DNA of 64,000 bases from Symbiobacterium thermophilum (GTDB lineage: Bacteria; Bacillota; Sulfobacillia; DYFQ01), in the NCBI GenBank assembly GCA_020725105.1, contig DYFQ01000004.1, positions 3,127 through 67,126 of the forward strand, read 5' to 3'. The translations under genes and the position numbers were made by a program. Positions 7,146-53,678 of the stretch are shown one piece after another (position 1 is the stretch's first letter; every line of letters begins with the position of its first letter). Below the pieces are notes generated by a model that did not search any database, had not been told where the DNA came from, and saw only the letters and a program-made list of their open reading frames with translations.

Positions 7146-8546
7146 TCACGGACGACCTGGCGCAGGCGCTAGCGTGAGTTCCCGGGCGACGCGGTCCACG
7201 TCGCCGGCCCCCACCGTCAGCACCAGGTCGCCGGGGCGGACCTCCCGGCGCAGGAGCGTCACCACGTCGTCCAGGGCGGGAACGTGGCGCGCGGTACTCG
7301 GTGCCCGGGCGTTGATTTCCCGGGCCAGGTCGGCCGAACTGATGTCGCCCGGGTCCTCCTCGCGGGACGGATAGATGTCGGGCAGCACCACCAGGTCGGC
7401 GGCGGCCAGTTCCTCGGCAAACTTGTCCAGCAGGGCCTTGGTCCGGCTGAACAGGTGGGGCTGGAACACGCACCACAGCCGGTCCGGGTTGAACCGGCGG
7501 GCGGCTTCAAGAGTCACCCTGATGGCCGCCGGGTGGTGGGCGTAGTCGTCGTATACCGGCGCGCCGTTCACCGAGCCGACCAGTTCGAACCGGCGACGGA
7601 CGCCCCGGAACTCGCTCACCGCCTCCAGCGCCGCCGGCCCGGAGACACCCAGCCTGGAACAGGCGGCCAGCGCGGCGAGGGCGTTTGACACGTGGTGGCG
7701 GCCGGGGAGCGAAAGTCGGACCCGGCCAGCCTGGGCGCCGTCCACCTCCAGCGTGAACTCGGGGTAAGGGGCATGCTCCACGTAGCGGACGTCCCGCGCC
7801 CGCCAGCGGGCCCCCCCGGCGAGTCCGTAGGTGATGACCTCGGCCCGGACGTCGCCCGCGCCGATCACCTCCCGGACCCGGGGGTCGTCGGCGTTCGCCA
7901 CCAGCGCCCCTTCGGGTGGCACCAGGCAGGCGAACCGGTGGAACGCCCGGACCACGTTGTCCATGGAGTGGAAGTAGTCCAGGTGGTCGTCGTCGATGTT
8001 CAGGATGACGCCCAGGTAGGGTTTGAACCTGAGGAAGGTCTCCGAGTACTCGCAGGCCTCGGTGACCAGCACGTTGCCGCTGCCCAGCCTGACGTTGCCC
8101 CCCAGCGGCTCGACCTCGCCCCCGACGAGGGCGGTGGGGTCCAGCCCCGCCCGGACCAGGGCCAGGGCGATGAGGGCGGTGGTGGTGGTCTTGCCGTGGG
8201 TGCCGGCGACCGCCACGCCGAAACGGGCCTGTTCCATCAGGGTGCCGATCAGCTCGGCCCGGGTCATCACCGGGATCCCCGCGCGGCGGGCGGCGGCCAG
8301 TTCGGGGTTGCTCTCCTTGACGGCGGCGGTGTAGACCACGAGGTCGGCGCCGTTGACGTGCTCCGCGGCGTGGCCCCGGTAAAAGGCCAGCCCCTGGTCG
8401 ACCAGGCGGCGGACAAGGGGCGAGTCCTTCAGGTCCGACCCCGACACCCGGTAGCCGCGGGCCAGCAGGTAAGCGGCCAGGCCGCTCATGCTGATGCCGC
8501 CCACGCCCACGAAGTGCACGTGCTTTACCTTCGGGTGAAGGGTCAT
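7146..8546 (-). CDS. murC: UDP-N-acetylmuramate--L-alanine ligase
   Basis: Mur ligase motifs VHFVGVGGISMSGLA and GTHGKTTTT. Full-length similarity pattern to MurC. Confidence 0.9.
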   Translation of the reverse strand: MTLHPKVKHVHFVGVGGISMSGLAAYLLARGYRVSGSDLKDSPLVRRLVDQGLAFYRGHAAEHVNGADLVVYTAAVKESNPELAAARRAGIPVMTRAELIGTLMEQARFGVAVAGTHGKTTTTALIALALVRAGLDPTALVGGEVEPLGGNVRLGSGNVLVTEACEYSETFLRFKPYLGVILNIDDDHLDYFHSMDNVVRAFHRFACLVPPEGALVANADDPRVREVIGAGDVRAEVITYGLAGGARWRARDVRYVEHAPYPEFTLEVDGAQAGRVRLSLPGRHHVSNALAALAACSRLGVSGPAALEAVSEFRGVRRRFELVGSVNGAPVYDDYAHHPAAIRVTLEAARRFNPDRLWCVFQPHLFSRTKALLDKFAEELAAADLVVLPDIYPSREEDPGDISSADLAREINARAPSTARHVPALDDVVTLLRREVRPGDLVLTVGAGDVDRVARELTLAPAPGRP

Positions 8547-8849
8547 CGCCGCCCTTGACACCTCAGGCCTTCTTCTCATGCGGTATGCGCCCGGCCACGA
8601 CGCCGTGTACGGCGACCCGTTGACGGCATTCGACGCCGGGCAACGGGATCATTCGCCCTGGTTATCATATCACGCCTGGCTGGAAATCATCCCCTCCCCC
8701 TCCGGGGGCAGCCGTTACCCGGCCGGGCGGTAAAGCCCGTCTCCGCCTGGGCCGATATAGACGGCGGAGGCGTTTCGCGGGACGGTGCATCCCGGACCCG
8801 GCGAGCCGTGTATCCTAACGACGCCCCCAGTTCTGGAGGAGGGGTTGGC

Positions 8850-13017: not shown

Positions 13018-13875
13018 CTAGCTGGCCGAGACTTCCTGGAAGGCGGGAGGGAAGTAGTTCCCGCCGTGGACGGACCGGATCCCGGCAACGAGCTCGGAGC
13101 TTGCGGCCCGCTTGGGGATGAACCCCACCGCGCCGGCCTTCCTGGCGACGACCATGTTCTCTTCCTCGTCGTACTGGGTCAGGATCAGCACCCGGATGTC
13201 GGGATACTGCTGCACTATCCGCCTGGTCGCTTCCAGACCGTTCAGCCCCGGCATCAGTATGTCCATCAGCACCACGTGGGGCCTCAAGACGGGCACCTTC
13301 TCGATGGCGTCGCGGCCGTCAACGGCTTCTCCCACCACCTCCATGCCCCTCTGCAGCCTCACCACGGCGCAGATGCCGTCCCTGACAATGGCGTGGTCGT
13401 CCGCTATCAAGACCTTGATCGTGCGCGGGGCAGCCTCGAGTAGTTCCCGAATTCGTGGCACCAGTGAGGCGGGCTCCACGGGCTTGGTGACGTAGTCCTC
13501 GGCCTCGAGCTGCATGCCCTCCGACCGCGTCCATCCCCGGATGGAACGTTCCTCGGACCGGGCATCAACCACCACCAGGGGCACCTGACGCCACCTGGGG
13601 TGCCGCTTCACCCACTGGTGCAAGGAGAAAGCCTGTCCTGCCGGGGCGAGCGTGCCCAGCACCACCAGGTCTGGCTCCACGGCGGCCATCAGTTCCCGGG
13701 CCTGGGCACTGTCAGAGGCGGTGAAGACCCGGTACGACCTGGCCTCCAGGGTCCGGCAAAAGGCCTGCACAAAAGCGGGCTCGTCGTCGACGATCATGAT
13801 GCGGCCCCCACCCCCGGGACCGGCCGCCCGTGCCGGTCCGGAATGGAGCAGTCTCCCGCGCTCCGCGTCTGTCAT
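13018..13875 (-). CDS. Response regulator with two tandem receiver (REC) domains and no output domain
   Basis: REC1 (RIMIVDDEP...LVVLGT...) and REC2 (KVLIADDHAIVRDG...VVLMDILMPGLNGLEATRRI...LILTQYDEEENMVVARKAGAVGFIPK), then the ORF ends. M1 carries the strongest RBS (AAAGGAGGGA). An alternative start is 13797. Confidence 0.75.
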   Translation of the reverse strand: MTDAERGRLLHSGPARAAGPGGGGRIMIVDDEPAFVQAFCRTLEARSYRVFTASDSAQARELMAAVEPDLVVLGTLAPAGQAFSLHQWVKRHPRWRQVPLVVVDARSEERSIRGWTRSEGMQLEAEDYVTKPVEPASLVPRIRELLEAAPRTIKVLIADDHAIVRDGICAVVRLQRGMEVVGEAVDGRDAIEKVPVLRPHVVLMDILMPGLNGLEATRRIVQQYPDIRVLILTQYDEEENMVVARKAGAVGFIPKRAASSELVAGIRSVHGGNYFPPAFQEVSAS

Positions 13876-13949
13876 CCTGGCCGTCCCTCCTTTACCGCGG
13901 TGTTCGACCGGGCCGCCCGGCGCGCTCGAGCCGCGCCTCGCCGGGCCGA

Positions 13950-14861
13950 TCAGTGACGCAGTACCTCGAGCTCCGCTGCCTCCAGGATGTCAGGCACCGC
14001 CTTCTCGTTGCCAACGGCCATGATGTGGACACCGTGGCATAGACGCTCCTCCCGGATGGCCCTCACGAACCGGGCGGCGATCTCTATGCCCTTGTCGCGC
14101 CCCTTCCCTTTCCCCGCCGAGGTCAACTCCTCGATGATGGCCCCGGGAACGGTGATCCCGGGGACGTTGTCGTTCATGAACCTGGCCATCCTGACCGAGG
14201 TGAGGACGATGATGCCGGCCAGGACGTACACATCGAACTGCGAGGCATACTGCATGAACCGGCGAAGGCTGGCCAGGTCGAAGATCCCCTGGGTCTGAAA
14301 GAACCGGGCCCCTGCGGCCACCTTCTTCTCGAACTTGATGAGCTGGGGCTCAATGAAGTCCGCCTCGGGGTGCACGGTCGCTCCGGCAAAGAACCGCGGG
14401 GCGCCCCGCAACGGGTTTCCGGAGAGATCCTGGCCGGACTCCAAGGTCCCCACCAGCCGCAGGAGCTGGACCGAGTCAAGGTCAAATACCGGCTTGGCCT
14501 CCTTGTGGTCTCCCACGTCCACCGAGTCGCCGGTCAGGCAGAGAACGTTGGTGATCCCCCGGGAATAGGCCAGGAGGAGGTCTGCCTGCAGGGCCAGGCG
14601 GTTGCGGTCCCGGCAGGTCACCTGCAGGATGGGTTCACCCCCGCGCTCCTTCACCAGGAGGCAGCCTCCCAGCGAGGGGAAACGCATCACCGAGCTCTGG
14701 TTGTCGGTGACGTTGATCGCGTCCACTCTGGTCTTGAGCAGGTCGATGAGGTGAACCAGCTCCGAGGCGTCCGCGCCCTTGGGCGGGCCGACCTCCGCGG
14801 TCACCACGAACTCGCCGGAGTTCAGTTTCTCCTCAAGCAGGCTGTGGGCCATCTGTCTCAC
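13950..14861 (-). CDS. metF: Methylenetetrahydrofolate reductase, catalytic subunit
   Basis: Full-length MTHFR TIM barrel (FVVTAEVGPPKGAD, QVTCRDRNRLALQADLL, YVLAGIIVLTS). Confidence 0.9.
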   Translation of the reverse strand: MRQMAHSLLEEKLNSGEFVVTAEVGPPKGADASELVHLIDLLKTRVDAINVTDNQSSVMRFPSLGGCLLVKERGGEPILQVTCRDRNRLALQADLLLAYSRGITNVLCLTGDSVDVGDHKEAKPVFDLDSVQLLRLVGTLESGQDLSGNPLRGAPRFFAGATVHPEADFIEPQLIKFEKKVAAGARFFQTQGIFDLASLRRFMQYASQFDVYVLAGIIVLTSVRMARFMNDNVPGITVPGAIIEELTSAGKGKGRDKGIEIAARFVRAIREERLCHGVHIMAVGNEKAVPDILEAAELEVLRH

Positions 14862-15525
14862 CCGGGCCGCCGGCCCTGCTGGTGATCCTCCGCGGACGGG
14901 GAATCGTCCGGAAGTTCCTGGGCGGATAGTACCGGCGCATCTTCTCCAGCTGGTTCAGGGTTTCCAGCCGGCGGTAGATCAGCACCCAGCCGCAGTCCAT
15001 TTCCGGGCTGGCCTCGCACTTGCCGTTCTTGGTACCGGCGCACGGACCGTTGAGCATCCCCTTGGTGCAGCGGGTGATCGGACAGATGCCACCGGTATCG
15101 GCCAGCCGGCAGTCGCCGCAGGCGGCGCACCGCTCGTCCCAGACCCCCCACTCGTCCGCCATGCCCACGAAGGAGGTATTGACTCCGGGCAGCACCGGCA
15201 GGTCGGGGAAATGCTCGGCTATGGCCTGGACTCCCACGCCACAGCCAAGGGACAGCACGGCGTCCACCTCCGCGACCCTGTCCTTGAGCAGGTCCAAGAA
15301 CTCGAGGTCGCACTGCCGCTTCAGGGTGTGCTCGAGGAAGATCCGCGGCTCTCCCCCAGCCCGCGCCCGCGCCACCCTGAGGGCATGGTGCAGATAGGAG
15401 ACCTCGCGCTCGCCCCCGGCACCGCACACGGTCATGCAGGTGCCGCAGCCCACGATGAGGACCCTGGAGTAGGGGGCGAGCATCCTTGCCATCTCGTCCA
15501 GGGGCTTTTGCTCCGCGATGATCAA
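14833..15525 (-). CDS. metV: Methylene-THF reductase small subunit (MTHFR_C, Cys-rich)
   Basis: Cys motifs CGTCMTVCG and CAACGDC...CPITRCTKGMLNGPCAGTKNGKCE are characteristic of MetV in acetogens. Its ATG overlaps the stop of the upstream oxidoreductase (ATGA). Confidence 0.8.
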   Translation of the reverse strand: MIIAEQKPLDEMARMLAPYSRVLIVGCGTCMTVCGAGGEREVSYLHHALRVARARAGGEPRIFLEHTLKRQCDLEFLDLLKDRVAEVDAVLSLGCGVGVQAIAEHFPDLPVLPGVNTSFVGMADEWGVWDERCAACGDCRLADTGGICPITRCTKGMLNGPCAGTKNGKCEASPEMDCGWVLIYRRLETLNQLEKMRRYYPPRNFRTIPRPRRITSRAGGPGETDGPQPA

Positions 15526-17657
15526 CGGCCTGCCTCCCGCCTCATGACCTCGGCCAGGTAGAGCCCGCCGACCCGCTCCACGAACCGGTCAAGCTCGACG
15601 GCCAGGTTCTCCGCGCCGCCCGCCAGCACGAACGCCTGAAGCCGCCCGGGCTCCACTCCGACCTGGGCCAGAGTCTTGCGCACCCTTTCCACTCGCTGGC
15701 GAAGCCAGAGATCGGTGTTTTCGCGGGCGCACTGCTCGCCGCACCCGGCCACGAAGACTGCCTCGCCGCCGAGCTCGAAGGCCTTCAGAAGGTGCTCTGC
15801 CTCGACCTTGGCCGCACACAGCACCGGCACGATCCAGACTCCCGCCCTCGCCCGCCGCCAGACTCCCGCCAGCGAGTGGGTGCCAAACAGCCCGTACTGG
15901 CAGCAAAAGCCAAGGATCAGGGGCCTGACCTTGGCCTCCGCGGCGGCATTCAAAGCGTGTTCAAGCTCCTCGTCGACCTGGCGTCGATCGTGTGGCTTGC
16001 GCAGGGCAATGGCGCGGGCAGGGCACTCTCCGACGCAGACGCCGCAGGCCTGGCATTGCTCCGGCGGTATCCGCACGTTGCCAGCCTCGTCAAGCCGGGG
16101 AACGTGGTATGGGCAGACCCTGAGGCAGGTGAGGCAGGCGGCGCACTTATCCTGGAAGAGGATCTCGGCACCCATCCCGCAGCGCAGGCACCGCCTGGCC
16201 TCGCTGACCGCGGCCTCCCAGTCGTACACCGCCTCGACCGGCTCGAAGCCCTTGCGCCTCGCCTCGGGCGCCAGCACGGGGGGCTCCATCCGCCCCGTCC
16301 GCCTGATCACCTCGACCGTGCGGGGTTCCAGGTCGCCTTCCAGCCTGGGCCCCGGGTCGCGGGGCTTGGGGTAACGGTGCTGCAAGTAGTCGTCAATGCG
16401 GTGGGCGGCCAGCCTGCCCTGGGCGAGGGCCCGCACGGCGGTGGCGGGACCGCTCACGGCGTCTCCACCCGCGAACACGCCCGGCCGGTTGGTGGCGAGA
16501 GTGACCGGGTCGACCTGTATGGTACTGCCTCTGCCGGTGCGGAGGCGGAAGTCCTCGGGAACCTGGGGCACCTGGCCGATGGCCGTGATCAGGGTGTCAC
16601 AGGACAGGTGGGTCGTCGTGCTCTCATCGTAGGTGGGGCTGAACCTTCCGTCCGCATCGAACACGCTAACGCACCGTATGCACTGCACGCCGGTGACGTG
16701 GCTATCCCCGCTGATCGCCCCGGGGCCCCAGCCGCAGTTGAGCGCAACGCCTTCCTCCACGGCCGCCTCTACGTCCTCGGCGGACCCCGGCATCTCCTCC
16801 CGCTTTTCCAGGCACACGACGTGCACCTCTCGCGAGCCCAGCCGCAGCGCCGTGCGGGCTGCGTCCATGGCCACGTTTCCGCCGCCTATGACAACCACCC
16901 GGTCGCCCAGGGAGGGCTTGAGGCCGAGGTTCACCTCCCTGAGGAAGGTGATGGCGTCCACCACTCCGGGGAGGTCCTCCCCCGGAACCCCGAGGCGGCG
17001 GCTCTGCTGGGCTCCGACGGTGACGAAGATCGCCCGGTAACCTAGCTGGAACAGCAGGTCCAGCGAGACCACGCGGGTGTTGGTCCGGATCTCCACCCCC
17101 ATGCGGGTCAGTCGCTCGACCTCAGCGTCCAGCACCGCCCGCGGCAGCCGGTACTGGGGAACCCCGCCCCGGAGCATCCCCCCCACCTCCGGGTGGGCCT
17201 CGAAGATGGTGACGGGATACCCTAGCTTGCGGAGGTAGTAAGCGCAGGCCATGCCGGCCGGACCTGAGCCAACGATGGCTACCCGCTCACTGTGGATCGT
17301 CTCCGCCTCCGTTTGCACCAGCCTGTCCCCGCCGAACTCGACCGCGAACCGCTTGAGCGCCCGGATGGCCACCGCGTTGTCCACCTGGGCCCGCCTGCAC
17401 TGGTCCTCACAGGGATGGCTGCACACGTACGCGCAGATCGAGGGAAAGGGGTTGCCGCTCCTGATCACCCGCAGCGCCTCGAGGATCCGACCCTGGGCCA
17501 CCAGGTCAACATATTCCCTTATGTCCTGGTACAATGGGCAGGCCGCCTGGCAGGGCGGGACCAGGCTCCGGTCGGCGAGCTGCCCCGTACCGGCCCTGGG
17601 GACTGGTGGCGCCGGGCTTGCCGGCGTGAAGCGCACGGCCTGTTCTCCTGCTATCAT
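15522..17657 (-). CDS. Fusion oxidoreductase: GltD/NfnB-like NAD(P)H-binding FAD/FeS module + 2x[4Fe-4S] ferredoxin domain + C-terminal MvhD-like domain
   Basis: N-terminus has GltD/DPD-type FeS (CQAACPLYQDIREYV...ICAYVCSHPCEDQC), then two dinucleotide-binding folds (VAIVGSGPAGMACA; VVVIGGGNVAMDAA). The ferredoxin domain reads CLRCGMGAEILFQDKCAACLTCLRVCP...CQACGVCVGECP. The MvhD-like domain is LILGFCCQYG...VPVLCAAKVEAEHLLKAFELGGEAVFVAGCGEQC. ATG at 17657 overlaps the kinase stop in ATGA fashion, and the stop overlaps the metV start. Confidence 0.8.
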   Translation of the reverse strand: MIAGEQAVRFTPASPAPPVPRAGTGQLADRSLVPPCQAACPLYQDIREYVDLVAQGRILEALRVIRSGNPFPSICAYVCSHPCEDQCRRAQVDNAVAIRALKRFAVEFGGDRLVQTEAETIHSERVAIVGSGPAGMACAYYLRKLGYPVTIFEAHPEVGGMLRGGVPQYRLPRAVLDAEVERLTRMGVEIRTNTRVVSLDLLFQLGYRAIFVTVGAQQSRRLGVPGEDLPGVVDAITFLREVNLGLKPSLGDRVVVIGGGNVAMDAARTALRLGSREVHVVCLEKREEMPGSAEDVEAAVEEGVALNCGWGPGAISGDSHVTGVQCIRCVSVFDADGRFSPTYDESTTTHLSCDTLITAIGQVPQVPEDFRLRTGRGSTIQVDPVTLATNRPGVFAGGDAVSGPATAVRALAQGRLAAHRIDDYLQHRYPKPRDPGPRLEGDLEPRTVEVIRRTGRMEPPVLAPEARRKGFEPVEAVYDWEAAVSEARRCLRCGMGAEILFQDKCAACLTCLRVCPYHVPRLDEAGNVRIPPEQCQACGVCVGECPARAIALRKPHDRRQVDEELEHALNAAAEAKVRPLILGFCCQYGLFGTHSLAGVWRRARAGVWIVPVLCAAKVEAEHLLKAFELGGEAVFVAGCGEQCARENTDLWLRQRVERVRKTLAQVGVEPGRLQAFVLAGGAENLAVELDRFVERVGGLYLAEVMRREAGR

Positions 17658-19312
17658 CTCCGGTCGTCTCCACCTTCGCGTCCCGTCCCGCCCGGCAGCG
17701 GTACTGTCACAGTGATCCGGGTTCCGCGCCCTGGTTCCGACTCGACCTGACAAGTTCCCCCGACCAGCTTGGCCCGTTCCTTCATGGTGAAAAGCCCTGC
17801 GCCCCGGCCGCCTGGCTCCACCCGCGTCAGCCGGCCAACCTCAAACCCCCGGCCGTCGTCTTCCACCCGGAGCACGCACTCGTTCTCGTCGCACTCCAGC
17901 CGAATGGAGGCATGCCTGGCGCCGGAGTGCTCCAGGATGTTGCCGATCAGCCCCTGCGCCACGCGGAAAAAGGTCATCTCCACCTCGGAGGGGAGGCGCT
18001 TGTCCATGCCCTTGAACTCCGTGGTTACGGCAATCCCCCGGGACTGCAGCATGTCCTTGGCGTAGCGCTGGATGGCGGCCGGCAGCCCGAGCTCATCCAG
18101 CAGGGTCGGCCGGAGCGCCTTCATCAGCTTGACGATCTCATTTCCCATGTGCACCGCCTGGGAGTAGGTCTTGTCCAGCATCTCGACCAGCTCGGGGTCG
18201 TTCACGCCCGTCAGCCCGACCATCTCGATGATCGCCTTGAGGTTCAGGGTGAGGCTCGTCAGGGCCTGACTGGTCCCGTCGTGGAGCTCCCTGGCGATGC
18301 GCTTTCGCTCCTCCTCCTGGGCGCTCAGGGCGCGCTGCAACAGGGCCTGGTAGCGTTGCCGCGCTTCCGCCAGCCGCGCGTAGAGCCTGGCCTGCTCGAC
18401 GGCGGCCCCCAGGTAGTCGCCGATCGACTTGAGCAAGGAGACGTCGTCGGGACTGAAGCGACCGACCACAAGGCTGGCCACGTTCATCACGCCCACCACT
18501 TCGCCCCGGCTCCTCAGCGGTATGCTGGCGAAACCCTTGAGCCCCTCGGCGCTGACCAGGTCGGGCCGGACCGTTCGAGGATCGGTGGAAAGATCCTCAA
18601 GCAGCATGGCCTCACCGGTCGCCGCCACCCGGCCCGCTATTCCCTCTCCCAGGGGTATCCGCATCTCCCGTACGTACTTGGGCGACAGGCCGCGGTGCAC
18701 GCGGTAGTGGAGGGTGTCCGTCTCCCGATCCACGAGCAGGATGCCCCCGCTCGAGCCGTTCACCAGCTCCAGGACGTTGTCCAGGGCGATGGTCAGGATG
18801 GAATCCAGGTCGTGAATGCCGCTCACCGCGCTCGAGACGTGATTGAGGGCGAGCAGCCTATGGTGCTGGCGAAGAATCTGGGTCTCCAGCTGGCGCTCGG
18901 CCGTAACGTCTCGTCTGAGCTCGAGGACGGCCCTCACCTTGCCCTGGCGGTCGCGGACCGGATAGGCACTGATCTTGAGGTATGTCTCTGCCCACGGGAT
19001 GCGGGCCGGATGGATGACGGTGGTCATGCGCCCGGACCGGAGCACGCTGCGCAGGGGACAATCCCAGAGGGGGGCCCCGCACGGTCGGTCACGATCATAG
19101 AAGACCTGGTAGCAAAGCTTCCCGACCGGTGATTCAACGCCCCTTCGCAGCCTGCTGCTGGCAGCCCGGTTGGCAAAGCGGATCCGGAACTCGCCGTCGA
19201 TGACCAGGAGGTCATCTTCCATGCTGTCCGCGATGTCCTGGAGCGTGATGTCGAAACCCGCCTGGCCGGAGGACTCCTGGATGACTATGTCCCGCGTGCC
19301 CACGTCTACCAC
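17654..19312 (-). CDS. Sensor histidine kinase, PAS-GAF-HisKA_3-HATPase
   Basis: Cys-containing PAS (CYQVFYDRDRPCGAPLWDCPL), a GAF domain, an H-box ELHDGTSQ (HisKA_3 / NarX-DegS type) and an ATPase G-box (GRGAGLFTMKERAKLVGG). Start is GTG at 19312 or 19303. Confidence 0.8.
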   Translation of the reverse strand: MVDVGTRDIVIQESSGQAGFDITLQDIADSMEDDLLVIDGEFRIRFANRAASSRLRRGVESPVGKLCYQVFYDRDRPCGAPLWDCPLRSVLRSGRMTTVIHPARIPWAETYLKISAYPVRDRQGKVRAVLELRRDVTAERQLETQILRQHHRLLALNHVSSAVSGIHDLDSILTIALDNVLELVNGSSGGILLVDRETDTLHYRVHRGLSPKYVREMRIPLGEGIAGRVAATGEAMLLEDLSTDPRTVRPDLVSAEGLKGFASIPLRSRGEVVGVMNVASLVVGRFSPDDVSLLKSIGDYLGAAVEQARLYARLAEARQRYQALLQRALSAQEEERKRIARELHDGTSQALTSLTLNLKAIIEMVGLTGVNDPELVEMLDKTYSQAVHMGNEIVKLMKALRPTLLDELGLPAAIQRYAKDMLQSRGIAVTTEFKGMDKRLPSEVEMTFFRVAQGLIGNILEHSGARHASIRLECDENECVLRVEDDGRGFEVGRLTRVEPGGRGAGLFTMKERAKLVGGTCQVESEPGRGTRITVTVPLPGGTGREGGDDRR

Positions 19313-19569
19313 CCCTGAGTGGACAATCCGGGCTGGCCACGTGTTGCCGCCGGGAAGTGGAGATGCTGCAGGGGATGGGCCAGGGCTTTCACGCCTCGGC
19401 CGCCAGCACGTTCAGTGCGTCGAACGGTGGCTGAAACTGCCGCGTCAGCGCGCACCTGGAAGGTACTTTAATCTTGAGCCACAGGCGCTTGGGCTGTCAA
19501 GCGTTCAGCGCCCTGAGGTTTTTGCGTCCGGTCCTTATGGCAACACCTCATTAATAAAACTACGAGAAT

Positions 19570-19599
19570 TTGACCCGTTTTCGGGATTAAGAGTAGAAT
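19570..19599 (+). promoter_or_regulatory. sigmaA-type promoter candidate for the downstream Cys-rich wHTH regulator
   Basis: TTGACC (19570-75), 18-nt spacer, TAGAAT (19594-99), inside an AT-rich island in an otherwise ~70% GC region. RBS AGGGAG lies before ATG at 19626/19632. Confidence 0.4.
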
Positions 19600-19625
19600 T
19601 TCTGTGAGGGTCCAACAGGGAGCGG

Positions 19626-20273
19626 ATGCCAATGATTCCCCAGGGCACCCGGGGAGAGATTCTTCAGTTGCTGAAACGCCACCGGGGGCTGACCATCGCC
19701 CAGCTGGCCAGGGAATTGGGGATCAGTCCCATGGCCGTCCGGCAGCACCTGATGCTGCTGGAGGGCGAGGGGCTGGTGGAAGGCGAGAAAATCCGGGGCC
19801 GCGTCGGCCGGCCGGGCCTCGCCTACCGGCTCACCCGCGACGGCGACGAGATCTTTCCCCGGCGCTACGACGTGCTGGCCGAAACCTTGCTGGACGCCGT
19901 GGCCGAACTGCACGGGCCCGAGACGGTAGACGCCCTGTTCCGGAAGCGGATGGAACGTCAGCTGGCCCGCTACTCCGAGCGCCTGGGCCACCTCGACCTG
20001 CCAGAACGGGTGCGGGAACTGGCCCGCATTCAGGCGGACGGCGGCTACATGGCGGAACCCTGGCGATCAAATGGCAATGCCCGGGGAGAGCATGGCTTTG
20101 TCCAGTACAACTGCCCCATCGCCCTGATCGCCAGGCGGTACCCCGTGGCCTGCCACTACGAGCTTGAACTGTACTGCCGGCTGCTGGGCGCGCCAGTGGA
20201 GCGGGTCGAGTGCATCGCCCAGGGCGGCACCTGCTGCCGCTACCGGATCGGGAACGGGCTGCCCGTCTCGTAA
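19626..20273 (+). CDS. ArsR-like winged-helix transcriptional regulator with C-terminal cysteine-rich domain
   Basis: N-terminal wHTH (EILQLLKRHRGLTIAQLARELGISPMAVRQHLMLLEGEGLV). The C-terminus carries CPIALIARRYPVACHYELELYCRLL...CIAQGGTCCRYRI. It is a paralogue of the CDS at 43031-43774. Confidence 0.7.
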   Translation: MPMIPQGTRGEILQLLKRHRGLTIAQLARELGISPMAVRQHLMLLEGEGLVEGEKIRGRVGRPGLAYRLTRDGDEIFPRRYDVLAETLLDAVAELHGPETVDALFRKRMERQLARYSERLGHLDLPERVRELARIQADGGYMAEPWRSNGNARGEHGFVQYNCPIALIARRYPVACHYELELYCRLLGAPVERVECIAQGGTCCRYRIGNGLPVS

Positions 20274-24099: not shown

Positions 24100-25137
24100 A
24101 TGCTTCGAGGGTGTTTCCGGATTGGGGGTTCTGACGTGGGCGACTTCGACTGGCGCCGGCGTCTGGAAGACCTGAGTGCCAGCTGGCGGCGGGTAGACTG
24201 GCGGAGCTTCTGGCGGCGCTGGGGCGTGTGGGTCGGGCTGGGCGGCGTGGTGCTCGTGCTGGCCGTGGCCCGGGGCCTGGACCGAGGTCCCGAGCAGCGA
24301 CCCATCGACCGGGTACGTCTGGGGCCGGAACCCCGGGTCACGGTGGAACTGGACGGCGGCAGCCGTACCCTGCCCATGGACGAGTACGTGGCCGGCGTGG
24401 TCGCCGGCGAGATGGACAACACCTGGCCGGTGGACGCCCTGGCGGCGCAGGCCATCGTGGCCAGGACCTTCGCCCTGCGGGAAATCCAGGACACCGGCGG
24501 CATCATCTCGGCTGACTTCGCGACGGCCCAGGCCTACAAGCCCGACCAGATCAACGACCGGGTGCGGGAGGCGGTCCGCAAGAGCCGTGGCGAGGTCATA
24601 ACCTACCGTGGCGAGTTGATCCGCGCCTTCTTTCACAGTTGCGCCGGCGGCAGGACGGCAACGGCCCAGGAAGGCCTGGGCTTCCGCAAGGAGGAGACAC
24701 CCTACCTTCAGGTGGTCACAGATGACGCCGACTGCACCGGCCGCTTCGGCCAGCGCAAGAACTGGCAGGCGACTTTTGAGAGTCAGGCCGTGCGCCGGGC
24801 CGTCCGACAGGTCACCGGCCGGGACCCCGGTCCCGTCCGGAGCTTCCGGATCGCCGGACGGGGACCTTCCGGCCGCGCCACCGTTTTCGCCGTCAACGGC
24901 GTCCAGGTGCCGGCGCCTGCCTTTCGCCTGGCCATCGGCTCCGAGACCATGCGCTCAACCCTGATCGACCGGATCGAGGTTGTTGGCGGCAGGGTCAGGC
25001 TGGCCGGGCGTGGCTTCGGACACGGTGTGGGGATGGCCCAGTTCGGCGCCCTCGCCCGGGTTCAGCAGGGGTGGTCCCCCGAGCGGGTGATCAGGTACTA
25101 CTTCCGGGACGTGGCCATTGAAAAGCGCTGGGAATGA
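24100..25137 (+). CDS. spoIID: SpoIID/LytB-domain protein (stage II sporulation protein D-like)
   Basis: SpoIID domain with FFHSCAGGRTA and GRGFGHGVGMAQFGA motifs. N-terminal TM segment. Start uncertain. Confidence 0.75.
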   Translation: MLRGCFRIGGSDVGDFDWRRRLEDLSASWRRVDWRSFWRRWGVWVGLGGVVLVLAVARGLDRGPEQRPIDRVRLGPEPRVTVELDGGSRTLPMDEYVAGVVAGEMDNTWPVDALAAQAIVARTFALREIQDTGGIISADFATAQAYKPDQINDRVREAVRKSRGEVITYRGELIRAFFHSCAGGRTATAQEGLGFRKEETPYLQVVTDDADCTGRFGQRKNWQATFESQAVRRAVRQVTGRDPGPVRSFRIAGRGPSGRATVFAVNGVQVPAPAFRLAIGSETMRSTLIDRIEVVGGRVRLAGRGFGHGVGMAQFGALARVQQGWSPERVIRYYFRDVAIEKRWE

Positions 25138-25165: not shown

Positions 25166-25750
25166 TCAGACCTCGGCCGGCGGTGGCGGCTGGCCCCCCG
25201 GCGACCACTCTTCCTCCGGGCGGCCCAAACGGCGGTTGACTGCCCGGGCCAGGACGAAGAACAGGTCTGACAGGCGGTTCAGGTACTGGATCACGCTGTC
25301 GTTCACCGCCGCGCCGGCCGCCAGGGTCACCGCCCGCCGTTCCGCCCGGCGGGCCACCGTTCTCGCCAGGTGCAATAACGCCCCCGCCTGCCCGCCGCCC
25401 GGCAGGATGAACCGGGTGAGCGGCGGGAGTCCAGCCTGATAGTGGTCGATGGCCGCCTCCAGCGCCGCCACCCGTTCCGGCCCCACCCTGGGTACCCGCC
25501 GCGCCCGGCCGGCCGCCCCGCGCCGTGCTGTGGTGGCCAGTTCGGCGCCCAGGTCCAGCAGTTCTGACTGGATCCGGCGGAGCAGCGAGTCGACCTCAGG
25601 GTCGTCCAGCGTCGCTCTGACCACGCCGATCAGGCTGTTCAACTCGTCCACGGTACCGTAGGCCTCGACCCGCCGGTGATCCTTGCGGACCCGCTCGCCC
25701 GTGAAGAGGCTGGTGTTTCCGGTATCTCCGGTTCGCGTGTAGATGCGCAT
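25166..25750 (-). CDS. PduO-type ATP:cob(I)alamin adenosyltransferase
   Basis: MRIYTRTGDTGNTSLFTGERVRKDHRRVEAYGTVDELN is the canonical N-terminus of the PduO/MMAB-type ATR. Confidence 0.85.
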   Translation of the reverse strand: MRIYTRTGDTGNTSLFTGERVRKDHRRVEAYGTVDELNSLIGVVRATLDDPEVDSLLRRIQSELLDLGAELATTARRGAAGRARRVPRVGPERVAALEAAIDHYQAGLPPLTRFILPGGGQAGALLHLARTVARRAERRAVTLAAGAAVNDSVIQYLNRLSDLFFVLARAVNRRLGRPEEEWSPGGQPPPPAEV

Positions 25751-25865
25751 CCGCCACCCGCCCTCCGTCTCCCGGACTTCGGCGCGTTCAAGGTCCGTCC
25801 TTCACCTGCCGATAACCAGAGTGCGCGGCCCCTGTCCGGGCCGGCGGCCCGGCGACCGGCGTCCG

Positions 25866-25895
25866 ACCCCCTGATGTTGGCCGGCGCCGGCCGAA
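25866..25895 (+). promoter_or_regulatory. Candidate sigma-I-type autoregulatory promoter elements upstream of sigI
   Basis: ACCCCC (25866-71) and CGAA (25892-95) resemble the -35/-10 elements reported for sigmaI promoters. The 20-nt spacer is longer than I recall for the consensus, so this is tentative. Confidence 0.25.
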
Positions 25896-25918
25896 TCCCA
25901 TACCGGGCAGGATCGTTG

Positions 25919-26632
25919 ATGCAAGCAGCTGACCTTGACCTGCTGGTCATGAAGGCCAAGGGTGGTGACGGCACCAGCCGGGAACTGGTGCTGGAGCGCT
26001 GCCGCCCGTTCATCGTCAGGGTGGCAAGCCGCCAGGCCAAGCGCTTCCTCGACTGGGAGAACGACGACGAGTTGAGCGTCGCCCTGGTGGCCCTCAACGA
26101 AGCCATCGACGCCTACCAGCCCCAGACCGGCGCGGGGTTTCTGGGCTTCGCCCAGGTGGTCATCACCCGCCGGCTGGTGGACTACTTCCGCCGCCAGGGA
26201 AGGCACATGGCGGAGACCCTGGACGGCGGCGGCTGGACCGAGGACGGCAGCCTGGTCCGCCTGGCCCGGCTGGAACAGGCCCGGCGGGAAGAGGAGGCGG
26301 CGCGCGCCGAGGAACTGCAGGAACTGAAGGCGGTGCTCAGCACGTTTGGCATCAGCCTGCGCGAACTGGCCCGGGTGGCGCCGCGCCGCGTGGACGCCCG
26401 CCAAGGCCTGGCGCAGGCCGCCCGGGTGCTGGCCAGCGACCCAGTTCTCGTCCAGCAGCTCTACTTCACCCGGCAACTGCCCCTGGCCGCGCTGGCCGGC
26501 CGGGTCCGGGTGTCGCGCAAGACCCTGGAACGGGGCCGCAAGTACCTGATCGCCCTCGCCATCGTCCTGGACCGGGGCCTGGACCACCTGATCGAGTACC
26601 TCAAACCGCTGTTTCGGGAGGGCCGGGCATGA
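25919..26632 (+). CDS. sigI: RNA polymerase sigma factor SigI
   Basis: 237 aa. The region-2 and region-4 pattern is typical of SigI (LLVMKAKGGDGTSRELVLERCRPFIV, FLGFAQVVITRRLVDYFR). An ATGA overlap leads to a downstream RsgI_N-domain gene. Confidence 0.8.
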   Translation: MQAADLDLLVMKAKGGDGTSRELVLERCRPFIVRVASRQAKRFLDWENDDELSVALVALNEAIDAYQPQTGAGFLGFAQVVITRRLVDYFRRQGRHMAETLDGGGWTEDGSLVRLARLEQARREEEAARAEELQELKAVLSTFGISLRELARVAPRRVDARQGLAQAARVLASDPVLVQQLYFTRQLPLAALAGRVRVSRKTLERGRKYLIALAIVLDRGLDHLIEYLKPLFREGRA

Positions 26633-27747
26633 GGCGCGGTATCGTGGTGGACATGGATGGCCGCCGGATCACGGTGGTGACCCCGTCCGGCCAGGTGGAG
26701 AACCTGCCAAGCCACCGCTGGCAGCACCCGCCCCGGTTGGGGCAGGAGATACTGCTCCCCGAACGCCCGGGACTCCGGGCGACCGTCGCCGCGGGCCTGA
26801 GCCGCCTGGGCCAACTGCCGGGGCGAGGCCGCCCGGCCCGGCGGCCACGCTTCCGGCTGCCGGCCCTGGTCCTGCCCAGGCCTGCCGTGTCGCTGCCCGC
26901 GCCGCGCCACATTCTTGGCTGGCTCGCGCAACGCCGGGCGCCCGCGGTCCTGGCGTCCGTCCTGGCCGCCACCGCCGTGGTGGCCGTCGGACTGACCCTG
27001 CCGGCCGTGTGGAACCCTCCCGTGGCCACCGTGGGCCTGGAAATCAACCCCCGGCTGGAACTGGCCGTCACGGCCGATGCCCGCGTGGCGGCGGTCCGCG
27101 CCCTGGACCCGGCCGGCTCGGCCGTACGGGACCTGGCCCGGTCCCGAACGCCGGCCTGGCCGCGGGGCTGGTGGGACTGGCGGAGCCGGCCTGAACTGGC
27201 CTCGGCCGTGACAGACCTGGTGACCGCCGCCCGCGACCTGGGCTATCTCTCCGATGGGGGGGCGGTGGTGGCGGCCGTGGTACCCCTGCGGGCGGCCGTC
27301 GACCCTGGCCTGATGTGGGAAGCCGTCCAGGAGGCCGTCACCCGGCTCGTGGCCACCGAGACCGGGACGATCCTCGTCGCCGTCCGCGCCACTCCCGAGA
27401 CCCTGGGCGCCGCCCGCGAGGCCGGCATGTCAATAGGTCTGTACCTGATGAGCCGGGCAGCCGAGATCGCCGGGGCTCCCCGGCCGGCGGAGCCCGGGGC
27501 CGGCCTGGGCCGGTGGGTCGGCGCTATCGGCGGGCCGAAGCGGGCGGCCGTCCTCCAGGCGGCGCTGGAGCAGGTGACCGAGGTGGTCGTGGTGGAGGTG
27601 CGGTCCACGGGCCGCGACGTCGACTCACAGCCCTCATCGGTCACCGGCGCCGACACCGACACCCCGGCTCCCCCTCCCGCCGAGCGGGAGCCCCGGCGCC
27701 GGCCCCGCGAGCCGCAGCCCGGACGCGGGCCGGTACCCCAGCCCTGA
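26629..27747 (+). CDS. rsgI: Anti-sigma-I factor RsgI-like protein
   Basis: RsgI_N domain (MRRGIVVDMDGRRITVVTPSGQVENLP), a single TM helix (VLASVLAATAVVAVGLTLPAV), then an Ala/Arg/Pro-rich extracytoplasmic region with no recognisable CBM. Confidence 0.7.
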   Translation: MRRGIVVDMDGRRITVVTPSGQVENLPSHRWQHPPRLGQEILLPERPGLRATVAAGLSRLGQLPGRGRPARRPRFRLPALVLPRPAVSLPAPRHILGWLAQRRAPAVLASVLAATAVVAVGLTLPAVWNPPVATVGLEINPRLELAVTADARVAAVRALDPAGSAVRDLARSRTPAWPRGWWDWRSRPELASAVTDLVTAARDLGYLSDGGAVVAAVVPLRAAVDPGLMWEAVQEAVTRLVATETGTILVAVRATPETLGAAREAGMSIGLYLMSRAAEIAGAPRPAEPGAGLGRWVGAIGGPKRAAVLQAALEQVTEVVVVEVRSTGRDVDSQPSSVTGADTDTPAPPPAEREPRRRPREPQPGRGPVPQP

Positions 27748-30804: not shown

Positions 30805-31263
30805 CTAGCTACGCCACTCGCGTTCCTCGCGGCCGCCCGGGGCGGCAAAGGTGGGCCCACCATACGTCGGGTAAGGCTCGGGCGCGCCCACGTGGCGCCC
30901 CTGGTCACGACCGTACTGGGGCCCGACCCCCGGCATGGCGCCGGGGATCATGCCTGCCGGCGCCTGGGCGTAGGGCTCGGCCCGGACGGTGCCCCGGTAA
31001 TCGTGAACGAACTTGGACACCTTGTGCTGGTCGGCGGCGGACACCTCGTACCAGCCCTTGTGGTGCAGGTACTCGAAGAGTTCGTAGTGCCGCTCCAGGT
31101 GGTCGTTCATGAGCGCCATGAAGCTGTTCCGGACTGGCCGGTTGGCCGCCTCGACGGTGCCCGTGTGATAGAAGGACGACAGGAACTTGCACGCGTCCAG
31201 GCACGCGAAGGCGATGGTCCGGTCGTCCAGCCGGTGGGCATGGGGTTGCGGGTGAACGCTCAC
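30805..31263 (-). CDS. Spore coat protein F-domain (CotF-like) protein
   Basis: Coat_F-like helical region (LDDRTIAFACLDACKFLSSFYHTGTVEAANRPVRNSFMALMNDHLERHYELFEYLHHKGWY). GTG start with GGAGAAAGGAGG RBS. Confidence 0.65.
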   Translation of the reverse strand: MSVHPQPHAHRLDDRTIAFACLDACKFLSSFYHTGTVEAANRPVRNSFMALMNDHLERHYELFEYLHHKGWYEVSAADQHKVSKFVHDYRGTVRAEPYAQAPAGMIPGAMPGVGPQYGRDQGRHVGAPEPYPTYGGPTFAAPGGREEREWRS

Positions 31264-31306
31264 GCGCTGCCTCCTTTCTCCGCTTCTGCGTCGCCATGGC
31301 ACAGGT

Positions 31307-31803: not shown

Positions 31804-32682
31804 CTAGGCGAAGTCCTTCAGGATCCTGGCCCAGTCCTGCTCGGGGAAGCTGAGGTCGAACTGGCGAGCCAGCGGTTCTTTGGCCAGCCCGGGCAGTTCC
31901 GCCTCGAAACTGGGCCGCTCCTCCTGGTAGATGAGACCTCGCACCAGACCCTCGTGCTGGAGAACCACGCGGATGGCGCCCGTCCGGTCGTGCGGGTCAT
32001 ACTCCGGTTCGTCGTCCAGGTTCACGCAGTTCTCCCGCCAGAAGTCGTAGGTGTCCTCCCGGTTGAAGGTGACGCAAGGGCTCAAGACGTTCAGATAGGC
32101 AAACCCCCGGTGCTTGATGGCCATTTCCACCAGCCTGGTCAACTGCTTCACGTCACCGGAGAAGCCCTGGGCCACAAAGCTCGCCCCCGCCGCCAGGGCC
32201 GTCTCCAGCGGCCGGACCGGGTATTCGGCCGTGCCGTAGGGGGAGGTCTTGGTCTTCATCCCCTTCCGGGACGTCGGCGAAGCCTGGCCGGTGGTCAGGC
32301 CGTAGATGTGGTTGTCCATCACCATGTAGACCAGGTCGATGTTGCGCCGGACGGTGTGCAGGAAGTGGGACAGGCCGATCCCGTATCCGTCACCGTCGCC
32401 GCCGAAGACGACGACCGTCAGATCACGGTTGGCCAGCTTGATGCCGGTGGCCACCGGGATCGCGCGGCCGTGGACCGAGTGGAACCCGTAGGCCCCGAAG
32501 TACGAGGGCGCCTTGGAGGAGCAGCCGATGCCGCCAACCACCACCACCTGGTCCGGGCTCAGCCCCAGCCCGGCGCAGGCCCGCTGCAGGGCCGCCAGGG
32601 CCGGGAAGTCGCCGCAACCCGGACACCAGGTGGACGGCTCCACGATGGACTGCTTGTAATCCATCACCGTTACCCGGGCCAC
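31804..32682 (-). CDS. korB: 2-oxoacid:ferredoxin oxidoreductase beta subunit (TPP-binding)
   Basis: CPGCGDF...GIGCS TPP/FeS motifs and a GDG Mg-TPP site. Directly abuts korA. Confidence 0.9.
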   Translation of the reverse strand: MARVTVMDYKQSIVEPSTWCPGCGDFPALAALQRACAGLGLSPDQVVVVGGIGCSSKAPSYFGAYGFHSVHGRAIPVATGIKLANRDLTVVVFGGDGDGYGIGLSHFLHTVRRNIDLVYMVMDNHIYGLTTGQASPTSRKGMKTKTSPYGTAEYPVRPLETALAAGASFVAQGFSGDVKQLTRLVEMAIKHRGFAYLNVLSPCVTFNREDTYDFWRENCVNLDDEPEYDPHDRTGAIRVVLQHEGLVRGLIYQEERPSFEAELPGLAKEPLARQFDLSFPEQDWARILKDFA

Positions 32683-46335: not shown

Positions 46336-47079
46336 ATGGCAGCCGGCAAGGCGGCCGGGGGGCGGAGGCGCGTAGTTGAGCGAGCCGACTTCTACAAAGG
46401 TTTGATCCAGCTGGCGGTGGCGTACTACCAGTACTACGTCCGGCGCAGGCGGACGGGCGCCGGCCGGCTCTTTGCCCGGGTCAGGCGGCTGTTGGCCCCG
46501 TTCGCTCCGGAGCACCGGGGGGTGGACGTCCGCCGACTCCTGCACGACGTGGAGGTCTGCATCGACGCCGTGGCCGCGGGCGAGGACCCGCCAAAGCTGA
46601 CCCTGCGGGGGCCGGGCATCGACCCCGTCGTCGAGGGCCTGAAGCACCGGAGCAAGCGTGCCGGGTATCCCGAGCATCCCCGGCCGTCGGTCCACGCCGC
46701 CATCGTCCGCGACAACCACGCGCTGCTGGTCCTCCGCAAGGGCGAGCCCTTCGCCGGGCGGTGGGGGCTCCCCGGGGGTGCCCTTGAACTGGGCGAGACC
46801 CTGGAAACGGCCTTGACCCGGGAGGTCCGCGAGGAGACCGGCCTGGAGGTCCGCCCGGTCCGGGTGATCGACGTGCGGGACGCCATTCACCGGGACCCCG
46901 ACGGTCGGATCCGCTTTCACTACCTGGTGCTGTTCATGACGGCGGTGCCCACCGGCGGCCGGCTGCGGGCCGCCGACGATGCCGGCGAAGCCCGCTGGGT
47001 GAGCCCGGAGGAACTGCGCCAGCTACCCCTGGTGCCGGGAGTGACAGCCATCCTGGCCCGGGCCGGTTTTCCCGCCTGA
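46336..47079 (+). CDS. DUF309-NUDIX fusion protein
   Basis: N-terminal DUF309-like helices (FYKGLIQLAVAYYQ). C-terminal Nudix box (GRWGLPGGALELGETLETALTREVREETGL). Confidence 0.7.
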   Translation: MAAGKAAGGRRRVVERADFYKGLIQLAVAYYQYYVRRRRTGAGRLFARVRRLLAPFAPEHRGVDVRRLLHDVEVCIDAVAAGEDPPKLTLRGPGIDPVVEGLKHRSKRAGYPEHPRPSVHAAIVRDNHALLVLRKGEPFAGRWGLPGGALELGETLETALTREVREETGLEVRPVRVIDVRDAIHRDPDGRIRFHYLVLFMTAVPTGGRLRAADDAGEARWVSPEELRQLPLVPGVTAILARAGFPA

Positions 47080-49131: not shown

Positions 49132-49134
49132 CCC

Positions 49135-50364: not shown

Positions 50365-50381
50365 GGGGGCTGGGGGACACA

Positions 50382-52653: not shown

Positions 52654-52673
52654 CGCCCCGCTCCCCTCCCGCC

Positions 52674-53651: not shown

Positions 53652-53678
53652 GCTGGACCTCCTTCGCTCCCCTGCCCG

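Follow-up and report, generated by a model that had tools for sequence, protein, structure and literature searches.

The window considered here is a stretch of 64,000 nucleotides (nt) of contig DYFQ01000004.1 from Symbiobacterium thermophilum. On its minus strand, at 13018-19312, lie five co-directional genes encoding a sensor histidine kinase (HK), an iron-sulfur flavoprotein fused to an MvhD domain (the fusion protein), the MetV and MetF subunits of a methylene-tetrahydrofolate (methylene-THF) reductase (MTHFR) and a protein made up of receiver stretches only (RR2). All five are open reading frames with coding-type codon bias, and the module as a whole has a G+C content of 67.4%. This gene set had been proposed in an earlier reading of the sequence alone (the sequence-only reading), and Pfam upholds every one of its domain assignments, namely PAS, GAF, HisKA_3, Fer4_20, Pyr_redox_2, FlpD, MTHFR and Response_reg. 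The genes and the region ahead of them are as follows.

19313-19625, strand not assigned: presumed promoter region of the five-gene operon, 313 nt, locally richer in A+T
17654-19312, minus strand: HK, sensor histidine kinase, 552 amino acids (aa) (Pfam PAS_4, GAF, HisKA_3, HATPase_c)
15522-17657, minus strand: fusion protein, putative electron-input subunit, 711 aa (Pfam Fer4_20, Pyr_redox_2, 2x[4Fe-4S] ferredoxin domain, FlpD/MvhD)
14833-15525, minus strand: MetV, 230 aa, FeS/Zn small subunit of a MetVF-type MTHFR (PF12225)
13950-14861, minus strand: MetF, catalytic methylene-THF reductase subunit (PF02219)
13018-13875, minus strand: RR2, receiver-only protein, 285 aa (Pfam finds two Response_reg stretches and nothing else)

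The genes are closely packed. The stop codon of the HK gene and the start codon of the fusion gene share an ATGA at 17654-17657, as the sequence-only reading had it; a GTG with its own AGGAG, seven codons downstream of this first start, is an alternative beginning for the fusion protein, and the NCBI call is 704 aa long. A second ATGA had been read at 15522-15525, where the fusion gene ends and metV begins. The letters there are TTGA with a TTG start, a correction that leaves the 4-nt overlap in place, and the alignment of homologues from residue 1 onward speaks for the TTG start. The overlap of 29 nt between metV and metF holds if metF starts at the GTG at 14861 (303 aa) and shrinks to 20 nt if it starts at the ATG at 14852, which gives 300 aa, the MetF length of homologues. 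A spacer of 74 nt, with a strong Shine-Dalgarno sequence (AAGGAGGG) ahead of the RR2 ATG, separates metF from the last gene. RNA folding of this spacer and of the region after RR2 is no better than that of shuffled sequence (z -0.04 and -0.78), and no attenuator or terminator is claimed at either place. Rfam and tRNA scans over the whole window gave no match and no riboswitch. The promoter and terminator scan returned nothing usable for the minus-strand operon and nothing on the minus strand of 19313-19625, the region that separates the kinase gene from a divergent ArsR-type regulator gene; a perfect TTGACA stands on the minus strand within it at about 19495-19500. No conservation was found between the region upstream of the kinase gene and the equivalent region of the related loci L083/L084.

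The sequence-only reading had assigned MetVF a single GltD-like NAD(P)H/FAD/FeS protein fused to MvhD as its partner, and matches in Pfam, NCBIfam and the Protein Data Bank (PDB) agree in describing such a GltD/NfnB-like protein. Its domains lie in this order.

17337-17558, minus strand: Fer4_20, part of the NfnB/GltD-like module (Pfam)
16416-17285, minus strand: FAD/NAD(P)H Pyr_redox_2, part of the NfnB/GltD-like module (Pfam)
16005-16154, minus strand: 2x[4Fe-4S] ferredoxin domain (Pfam)
15567-15917, minus strand: MvhD/FlpD [2Fe-2S] domain (Pfam PF02662, E 5e-18)

Over residues 33-546 the protein matches the GltD/NfnB-like NADP(H) modules found in StnC/NfnABC-type proteins of known structure (9bov_A, 2e-106; 9n5u_A; 8oh5_C), and the PDB search also returns NfnB (4ylf_B, 1e-71), NfnI, GltD and dihydropyrimidine dehydrogenase; in NCBIfam, PRK12771 spans residues 31-553. 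With NfnB (4ylf_B, 5jca_L) and the StnC/NfnABC proteins the alignment over residues 33-546 runs end to end and takes in two N-terminal [4Fe-4S] clusters, the FAD site and the NAD(P)H Rossmann fold, and in StnC-like proteins the ferredoxin domain that follows aligns as well. The window protein differs from them in lacking an NfnA partner, a Bfu core and a molybdopterin domain, and its C-terminus is MvhD. Residues 501-697 match the C-terminus of HdrA2, an HdrA::MvhD fusion (NF040770, E 9.5e-38), and residues 578-697 match MvhD, with five cysteines (CC...C...C...C) that align with 5odc_D in a pattern invariant in alignment A1. The FAD motif GxGxxG, the NAD(P)H motif GxGxxA and all Fe-S cysteines are likewise invariant in the 15 homologues of that alignment. 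Judged by these matches, the fusion protein is a chimera of an NfnB/GltD-like module, a ferredoxin domain of the HdrA C-terminal type and MvhD. The alternative that it is simply an HdrA was rejected, as HdrA matches residues 501-573 only and leaves the flavin body unmatched in both PDB and NCBIfam. With Methanosarcina HdrA2 it shares the C-terminal ferredoxin domain and MvhD; it differs in its flavin body, which is not HdrA-like, and in having neither an HdrBC partner nor heterodisulfide chemistry. An AlphaFold2 model of the protein was discarded as too poor, with a mean predicted local distance difference test (pLDDT) score of 54 and values below 50 in the Fe-S domains.

The coenzyme site can be followed across the family at residues 277-286 (window 16800-16830), which were compared across 32 loci. 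All five aligned homologues (NfnB, NfnI, StnC, 9bov and 9n5u) carry YRR(S/T) after beta-2 of the NADPH fold, and most orthologues of the fusion protein keep LYRR(S/T)R. In the window the YRR motif is replaced by CLE, within VVCLEKRE, and six related loci share CLE. This suggests NADH as the coenzyme of the window protein and NADPH as that of most relatives. A look-up by exact sequence found no record of the window's fusion protein. The family is large: orthologues of about 700 aa and 65-77% identity fill at least 120 clusters, the named ones mostly from Chloroflexota/Dehalococcoidia, and about 40 further 50%-identity clusters among the best 150 of 25,718 representatives have the same full-length architecture. 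The larger figure is the number of representatives of GltD-like proteins at E<=0.001.

MetF matches PF02219, the MTHFR TIM barrel, over residues 9-296 (E 1.2e-35), and its PDB matches are stand-alone NAD(P)H-type MTHFRs only, including 1v93_A and 3apt_A. MetV matches PF12225 (E 4.4e-35) and is encoded directly beside metF; no homologue of it is detectable by sequence in the PDB copy searched. Across orthologous loci MetF is 70-86% identical and MetV, aligned from residue 1, 68-80%. MetF and MetV have no pyridine-nucleotide site of their own (PMC8760232), and the electron donor and energetics of MetVF-type MTHFRs are an acknowledged open problem in Wood-Ljungdahl bioenergetics (PMC8760232). The fusion protein, MetV and MetF are predicted to form a three-subunit MetVF-type methylene-THF reductase.

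The Oppinger/Muller scheme (PMC8760232) distinguishes four MTHFR types, none of which this enzyme fits. Type IV is the MetFV-HdrCBA-MvhD complex of Moorella thermoacetica (Mock et al. 2014, as summarised in PMC8760232). The two have in common the MetV/MetF core, an MvhD-type [2Fe-2S] connector, an NADH-oxidising flavoprotein, the gathering of the genes in one cluster and a suspicion of electron bifurcation. In the window, however, the flavoprotein is NfnB/GltD-like instead of the HdrA thioredoxin-reductase type, MvhD is fused to it, so that there are three polypeptides instead of six, and a dedicated two-component system is present. Genes for HdrB/HdrC (CCG-domain) proteins or for an HdrA-type flavoprotein occur neither in the window cluster nor in 34 orthologous loci. 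Type III is the RnfC2-MetFV enzyme of Acetobacterium woodii (Bertsch et al. 2015, as summarised in PMC8760232), in which, as in the window, one extra subunit brings an NADH site and Fe-S clusters to MetVF. RnfC2 is an RnfC/NuoF-like FMN protein, whereas the window subunit is an unrelated FAD protein of the NfnB/GltD kind that carries an HdrA-type ferredoxin domain and MvhD; Pfam finds no RnfC/Complex1_51K domain in the five products. MetVF beside MvhD and a Pyr_redox_2 flavoprotein has been reported, as 'hdrA-mvhD-metVF' clusters in metagenome-assembled and single-cell genomes, in uncultured Actinomycetota, Acetothermia and Chloroflexi (Merino 2020, PMC7325909; Colman 2022, PMC9586279; Sewell 2017, PMC5736913). 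Their authors take the flavoprotein for HdrA and liken the complex to that of Moorella, and none describes the NfnB-like::MvhD fusion, the set of kinase, NarL-type regulator and RR2, the pseudo-receiver or the five-gene variant discussed below. The sequence-only reading knew of no described MTHFR operon with an embedded two-component system. Open-access papers and bioRxiv yielded no account of the kinase, of the pseudo-receiver protein or of the fusion as an MTHFR subunit beyond one sentence in Sewell et al. (2017), which notes that a two-component system 'phoBR' flanks metF_1 in a marine Chloroflexi single-cell genome (PMC5736913). That sentence qualifies the earlier statement.

The association of these genes was followed in neighbourhoods drawn from genomes, from exact-protein look-ups and from metagenomes seeded with RR2, with six proteins located by tblastn (individual loci carry L numbers). 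Seeding with the fusion protein gave 34 loci with a full-length orthologue at an identity of at least 55%. Where the neighbours could be evaluated, MetF and RR2 were never missing (30 of 30 loci each), MetV was found in 29 of 30 and the HK in 27 of 28, and in 24 of 28 a sixth gene, encoding a NarL-type regulator (REC plus GerE), lay between the kinase and fusion genes. Around the module the loci have no further gene family in common. The flanks of the orthologous loci are unrelated, their G+C content ranges from 40 to 68%, and their labels, Chloroflexota and Thermoleophilia among others, cover at least three phyla. In the reverse search, 73 of 80 RR2-seeded metagenome loci place RR2 in a MetV/MetF cluster: the gene immediately upstream is metF in 43 and that of a NarL-type regulator in 30, while four loci are too short and three have other arrangements. 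Its conservation shows that the link between signalling and enzyme genes is real, and the tight coupling of the HK to the enzyme genes that the sequence-only reading inferred from the 4-nt start/stop overlap in the window stands with it. The architecture had also been thought unusual. It is instead the normal state of the fusion family in more than 100 loci, mainly metagenome-assembled genomes of Chloroflexota/Dehalococcoidia; widespread it is, then, but not characterised.

Single loci depart from the common order. In L014 (10052-16204) the kinase and NarL-type regulator genes follow RR2 instead of preceding the fusion gene, and a second, divergent MetV-MetF pair (38-41% identity) comes next on the opposite strand. 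In L001 (7156-7808) the NarL-type regulator is called as two open reading frames (REC, 103 aa; GerE, 114 aa), through a frameshift or an assembly error. L127 (1-3305) is the one evaluable orthologous locus that has neither kinase nor NarL-type regulator within 3.3 kb upstream.

The 30 RR2 loci with a NarL-type regulator immediately upstream represent a second architecture, which Pfam resolves in L163 (4891-14734) as a GAF-only HisKA_3 kinase, a NarL-type regulator, RR2, an FdhA-like molybdopterin enzyme (894 aa), a NuoE-like protein, a NuoF::GltD fusion (1022 aa) and MetV. It recurs in L133, L134, L139, L142, L143, L146, L149, L151, L156, L161 and L164. Its kinases have no PAS domain and keep the GAF domain. 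Every locus of this type with at least 5 kb of downstream sequence has GltD-like and MetV genes. The cluster looks like a putative formate-dehydrogenase/Bfu-type complex linked to MetV(F), with MetF itself lying beyond the fetched sequence.

Two proteins of the module are devoted to signalling, and their relevant parts are these.

19058-19114, minus strand: Cys67/Cys78/Cys85 motif of the HK PAS domain (G-K-x-C-Y...R-D-x-P-C-x-x-P-L-W-x-C-P-L)
13435-13803, minus strand: REC1 of RR2, a pseudo-receiver (Pfam, alignment A2)
13051-13419, minus strand: REC2 of RR2, a canonical NarL-class receiver (Pfam, alignment A2)

The HK is predicted to be cytoplasmic, as no transmembrane segment is evident. It has HisKA_3 and HATPase_c domains, with the H-box His344 in an ELHDxTSQ motif that is invariant in alignments A3 and A4, and its PAS_4, GAF, HisKA_3 and HATPase_c architecture is common to at least 120 orthologue clusters at 63-74% identity. 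Cys67, Cys78 and Cys85, together with His101, are invariant among 45 kinase sequences and fall in the helical ligand-pocket region of the PAS domain. The AlphaFold2 model of the kinase has an overall pLDDT of 74; residues 57-84, which contain the Cys triad, score below 50 and are the sole low-confidence part of the PAS domain, as might be expected for a cofactor-dependent loop. The PDB search returned no solved homologue of the PAS region. NreB of staphylococci is a soluble HisKA_3-type kinase whose PAS domain binds an O2-labile [4Fe-4S] cluster through four cysteines and which is paired with the NarL-family regulator NreC. The window kinase resembles it in being soluble, in its HisKA_3-type core, in its cysteine-bearing PAS domain and in the NarL-family regulator of its relatives, and differs in having three conserved cysteines, an extra GAF domain and an extra receiver-only protein.

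RR2 is receiver-only, as the sequence-only reading had stated, and Pfam finds no DNA-binding output domain in it. The accompanying claim of tandem receivers needs more qualification, since two Response_reg stretches are present but only REC2 is a true receiver. In REC1 the phospho-acceptor position is occupied by an invariant Gly74-Thr75 within PDxVVLGT, and 20 or more positions of this domain are invariant (A2). REC2 has the full set of canonical receiver residues (D159, D160, D205, T233 and K255), each of them invariant (A2). Its closest PDB matches are the VraR/DevR/NarL receivers, and those of REC1 are PleD and PhoB. REC2 is 47-61% identical (49% for the window RR2) to the receiver of the NarL-type regulator encoded in the clusters of relatives, and by this resemblance is a paralogue of it. 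PleD (REC, pseudo-REC, GGDEF) offers a precedent for a true receiver joined to a non-phosphorylatable adaptor of receiver fold; in RR2 the order is reversed, with the pseudo-receiver first, and no enzymatic or DNA-binding output domain follows.

The window itself has no gene for a NarL/GerE regulator anywhere in its 64 kb. The same five-gene form, with no such regulator between kinase and fusion, is found in L083/L084 (fusion 74% identical, 66% G+C) and in the distant L012, and L085 (fusion 77% identical) is consistent with it, although upstream its contig covers no more of the kinase than the C-terminal end. L083/L084 and L085 are the closest relatives of the window, which carries a variant that has lost a regulator gene common in the family. 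The split in the coenzyme motif is independent of that between five-gene and six-gene forms: the (V/A)CLE(S/K)R minority includes the window, L001, L003, L083, L085 and L086. Upstream of the fusion gene, at a distance of about 55-115 nt, 12 of 26 six-gene loci have a conserved 27-nt element, TCCYAGGnnnTTTCCYATTG(T/C)C, which abuts a -35-like TTGYC and is probably the operator of the NarL-type regulator, as a candidate. Examples are L002 (7919-7945), L086 (3263-3289) and L100 (3070-3096), with nine further six-gene loci, and a second similar box often stands about 46 nt further upstream. The window and the five-gene loci give only background-level scores for the element, which is absent from several other six-gene loci too. 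These observations divide the earlier suggestion that the enzyme is under direct sensory control. The signalling link is conserved, but the common form has a DNA-binding regulator, and control there is probably transcriptional, at least in part.

The surroundings of the module are unrelated housekeeping genes, with a thiamine-binding protein, DUF402, CutA and prephenate dehydratase on one side and an ArsR-type regulator, M16 peptidases, HtrA and SpoIID on the other. The divergent ArsR/HTH_5-type regulator (19626-20273, plus strand, 215 aa) is rich in cysteine in its C-terminal half (CPIALIARRYPVACHYELELYCRLL...GGTCCRY). Relatives do not share it next to the module, to which it is probably unrelated. 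Genes for MurC, SpoIID-like, SigI/RsgI-like and Coat_F proteins (7146-8579, 24100-25137, 25676-27747 and 30805-31302, respectively) are present, and the best named relatives of MurC are Bacillota metagenome-assembled genomes at only 58-59% identity. The host is probably a deep-branching, endospore-forming member of the Bacillota with 70% G+C. The relatives of the module, by contrast, are mostly Chloroflexota, with up to 80% identity, which suggests lateral transfer of the module. Elsewhere in the window are two gene sets for 2-oxoacid:ferredoxin oxidoreductases and an apparent 2-oxoacid dehydrogenase (E1alpha/E1beta/E2) with lipoyl synthase (31804-34437, 47984-51302, 51400-55022 and 47023-47949). 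The E1/E2 and lipoyl synthase calls come from translations of open reading frames only, unconfirmed by Pfam; if they are right, ferredoxin-linked and NAD-linked oxidative decarboxylation are both encoded.

We regard it as rather probable that the locus is a self-contained, laterally distributed module in which a three-subunit MetVF-type MTHFR is combined with signalling proteins of its own. A hydride from NAD(P)H, in the window probably NADH, would be taken up by the FAD of the NfnB/GltD-like module of the fusion protein. From there electrons would pass through the [4Fe-4S] clusters and the [2Fe-2S] cluster of the C-terminal MvhD to MetV and on to the flavin of MetF, where methylene-THF would be reduced to methyl-THF; the reaction could also run in reverse. 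The fused subunit would thereby take the role that RnfC2 has in Acetobacterium and HdrABC-MvhD in Moorella. The soluble HK may read a cytoplasmic signal through a metal, Fe-S or thiol-redox site at the Cys triad of its PAS domain and through a small ligand bound at the GAF domain, autophosphorylate at His344 and pass the phosphate on to Asp205 of RR2, in REC2. The kinase would in most relatives also serve the NarL-type regulator, presumably activating the enzyme operon, with RR2 as a second output or a modulator. In the lineage of the window, where the NarL gene is absent and the kinase gene has joined the enzyme operon, RR2 would be the only partner encoded in cis. The output there would most likely be at the level of proteins, with phosphorylation of REC2 altering the binding of REC1 to a target, most plausibly the reductase complex.

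Several points weigh against this reading. The genome may encode a NarL-type partner beyond the 64 kb, which would make the step at protein level unnecessary. The PAS motif of the kinase has three cysteines where known Fe-S PAS sensors have four, its AlphaFold2 model gives no geometry for the triad, and the GAF-only kinases of the second cluster type indicate that the PAS domain is dispensable for association with MetV clusters. The assignment of NADH derives from a general rule for Rossmann folds and not from data on the fusion family. The window contains no other gene of a one-carbon (C1) pathway that would point to the physiological direction or role of the enzyme in the host.

The two doubts that touch the module itself are readily weighed. 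The view that the kinase and RR2 genes became neighbours by accident, as members of an unrelated regulon, has in its favour only that the promoter and terminator scans are uninformative. Their association holds in both search directions, across different flanks, a wide range of G+C content and several phyla, and the kinase overlaps the enzyme gene by 4 nt in the window; because the signalling trio is tied to MetV-containing C1 clusters of two kinds, chance adjacency is untenable, and it was rejected with hardly any probability left to it. It is very unlikely, though a little less so, that the fusion protein is an independent oxidoreductase, a relative of Nfn, sulfide dehydrogenase or glutamate synthase that merely neighbours metVF. 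GltD-like proteins are extremely widespread, and many of the loci scanned by tblastn have GltD-like genes without MetVF. The full-length orthologues, however, are followed by MetF and MetV with the near-complete regularity given above and mostly at overlapping or near-abutting junctions, and the pairing extends to members of 38-40% identity in other phyla (L013, L051 and L053). The lack of a pyridine-nucleotide site in MetF and MetV (PMC8760232) and the part of MvhD as a known electron connector between subunits speak against independence as well. A different role for RR2, as a phosphate sink or as a protein that competes or heterodimerises with the NarL-type regulator and, being co-expressed with the target operon, gives negative feedback on transcription, is doubtful but deserves more attention. 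The resemblance of REC2 to the regulator's receiver means that one HisKA_3 kinase should serve both, the RR2 gene closes the regulated operon in six-gene loci, and in the second cluster type it comes directly after the regulator. Yet RR2 is kept where the cluster encodes no NarL-type regulator (the window, L083/L084, L012 and probably L085), and a sink would have no need of the strongly conserved pseudo-receiver REC1.

The remaining alternatives concern what the enzyme does. It might be a flavin-based electron-bifurcating (or confurcating) three-subunit MTHFR, in reverse a methyl-THF oxidase, an interpretation we think unlikely. The NfnB-like FAD would split the electron pair, sending one electron through the ferredoxin domain and MvhD to MetVF, and ferredoxin would receive the other by way of the N-terminal [4Fe-4S] pair. 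That MetVF enzymes and the Moorella HdrABC-MvhD-MetFV complex bifurcate is a long-standing proposal (PMC8760232). In the fusion protein, residues 34-427 match nearly the whole of NfnB (4ylf_B, E 1e-71; 5jca_L), whose FAD is the bifurcating flavin of NfnAB, two separate Fe-S branches are present (Fer4_20, and the ferredoxin domain with MvhD), and the trio occurs in Wood-Ljungdahl clusters of energy-limited lineages. Against this, glutamate synthase uses the same GltD-like module simply to take in electrons from NAD(P)H, without bifurcation, and the best PDB matches are the StnC/NfnABC-type structures 9bov_A, 9n5u_A and 8oh5_C. In enzymes of the latter type, according to the work on 8oh5, the module is reportedly a non-bifurcating NAD(P)H entry too. 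Sequence does not tell a bifurcating flavin from a non-bifurcating one, and the structure model is too poor to do so. A joint version, in which a minimal bifurcating or confurcating MTHFR of three polypeptides (NAD(P)H, ferredoxin and methylene-THF) is gated in the five-gene lineage at protein level, by the kinase through the pseudo-receiver/receiver adaptor and not through transcription, is improbable.

The sequence-only reading placed the operon in the Wood-Ljungdahl pathway, a label that the window does not bear out. No genes for carbon monoxide dehydrogenase/acetyl-CoA synthase (CODH/ACS), fhs, folD or corrinoid proteins occur in its 64 kb, and no Wood-Ljungdahl genes flank the module in orthologous loci. 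The module may instead work outside the pathway in this host, supplying methyl-THF for methionine and S-adenosylmethionine or oxidising methyl groups from methylated substrates under certain conditions, which is a serious possibility even if we lean the other way. The dedicated sensor suggests conditional and not constitutive use, MetVF is anabolic in Methanosarcina (PMC9012536), and the host seems to encode the 2-oxoacid dehydrogenase complex mentioned above. On the other hand, Wood-Ljungdahl genes are often dispersed and 64 kb is a limited view of the genome, the cluster under the sister regulatory set joins a formate dehydrogenase with MetV, and distant homologues of the trio lie inside an ACS/CODH cluster. 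The latter, in L053 (1027-14219), comprises AcsB, CdhD, the fusion homologue (686 aa, 38% identity, same Pfam architecture), MetV, MetF, a CooC-like protein, a Pterin_bind (AcsE-like) protein and a formate dehydrogenase, with no kinase or receiver gene. Its formate dehydrogenase, a GltD::molybdopterin protein of the StnC kind, is interrupted at 12587/12636, perhaps by a selenocysteine TGA. From its position in this cluster, the trio of fusion, MetV and MetF can act as the reductase of the pathway; for the window the label has this indirect support only.

The module recurs in more than 100 loci of uncultured bacteria and has apparently never been studied. The Moorella complex, the only form of MTHFR suspected of bifurcation, has six subunits and has resisted full reconstitution; the window module would be a much simpler natural version encoded by three genes, one polypeptide of which unites the NAD(P)H site, the Fe-S wire and MvhD, and it would lend itself to expression in a heterologous host. 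Uncultured Chloroflexota have it in abundance, and it also occurs inside the ACS/CODH clusters of other phyla. The kinase, NarL-type regulator and RR2 are tied almost exclusively to MetV-containing clusters and may thus represent an unstudied regulatory input into C1 metabolism, for which the five-gene variant of the window would be a natural case where the receiver-only output alone remains.

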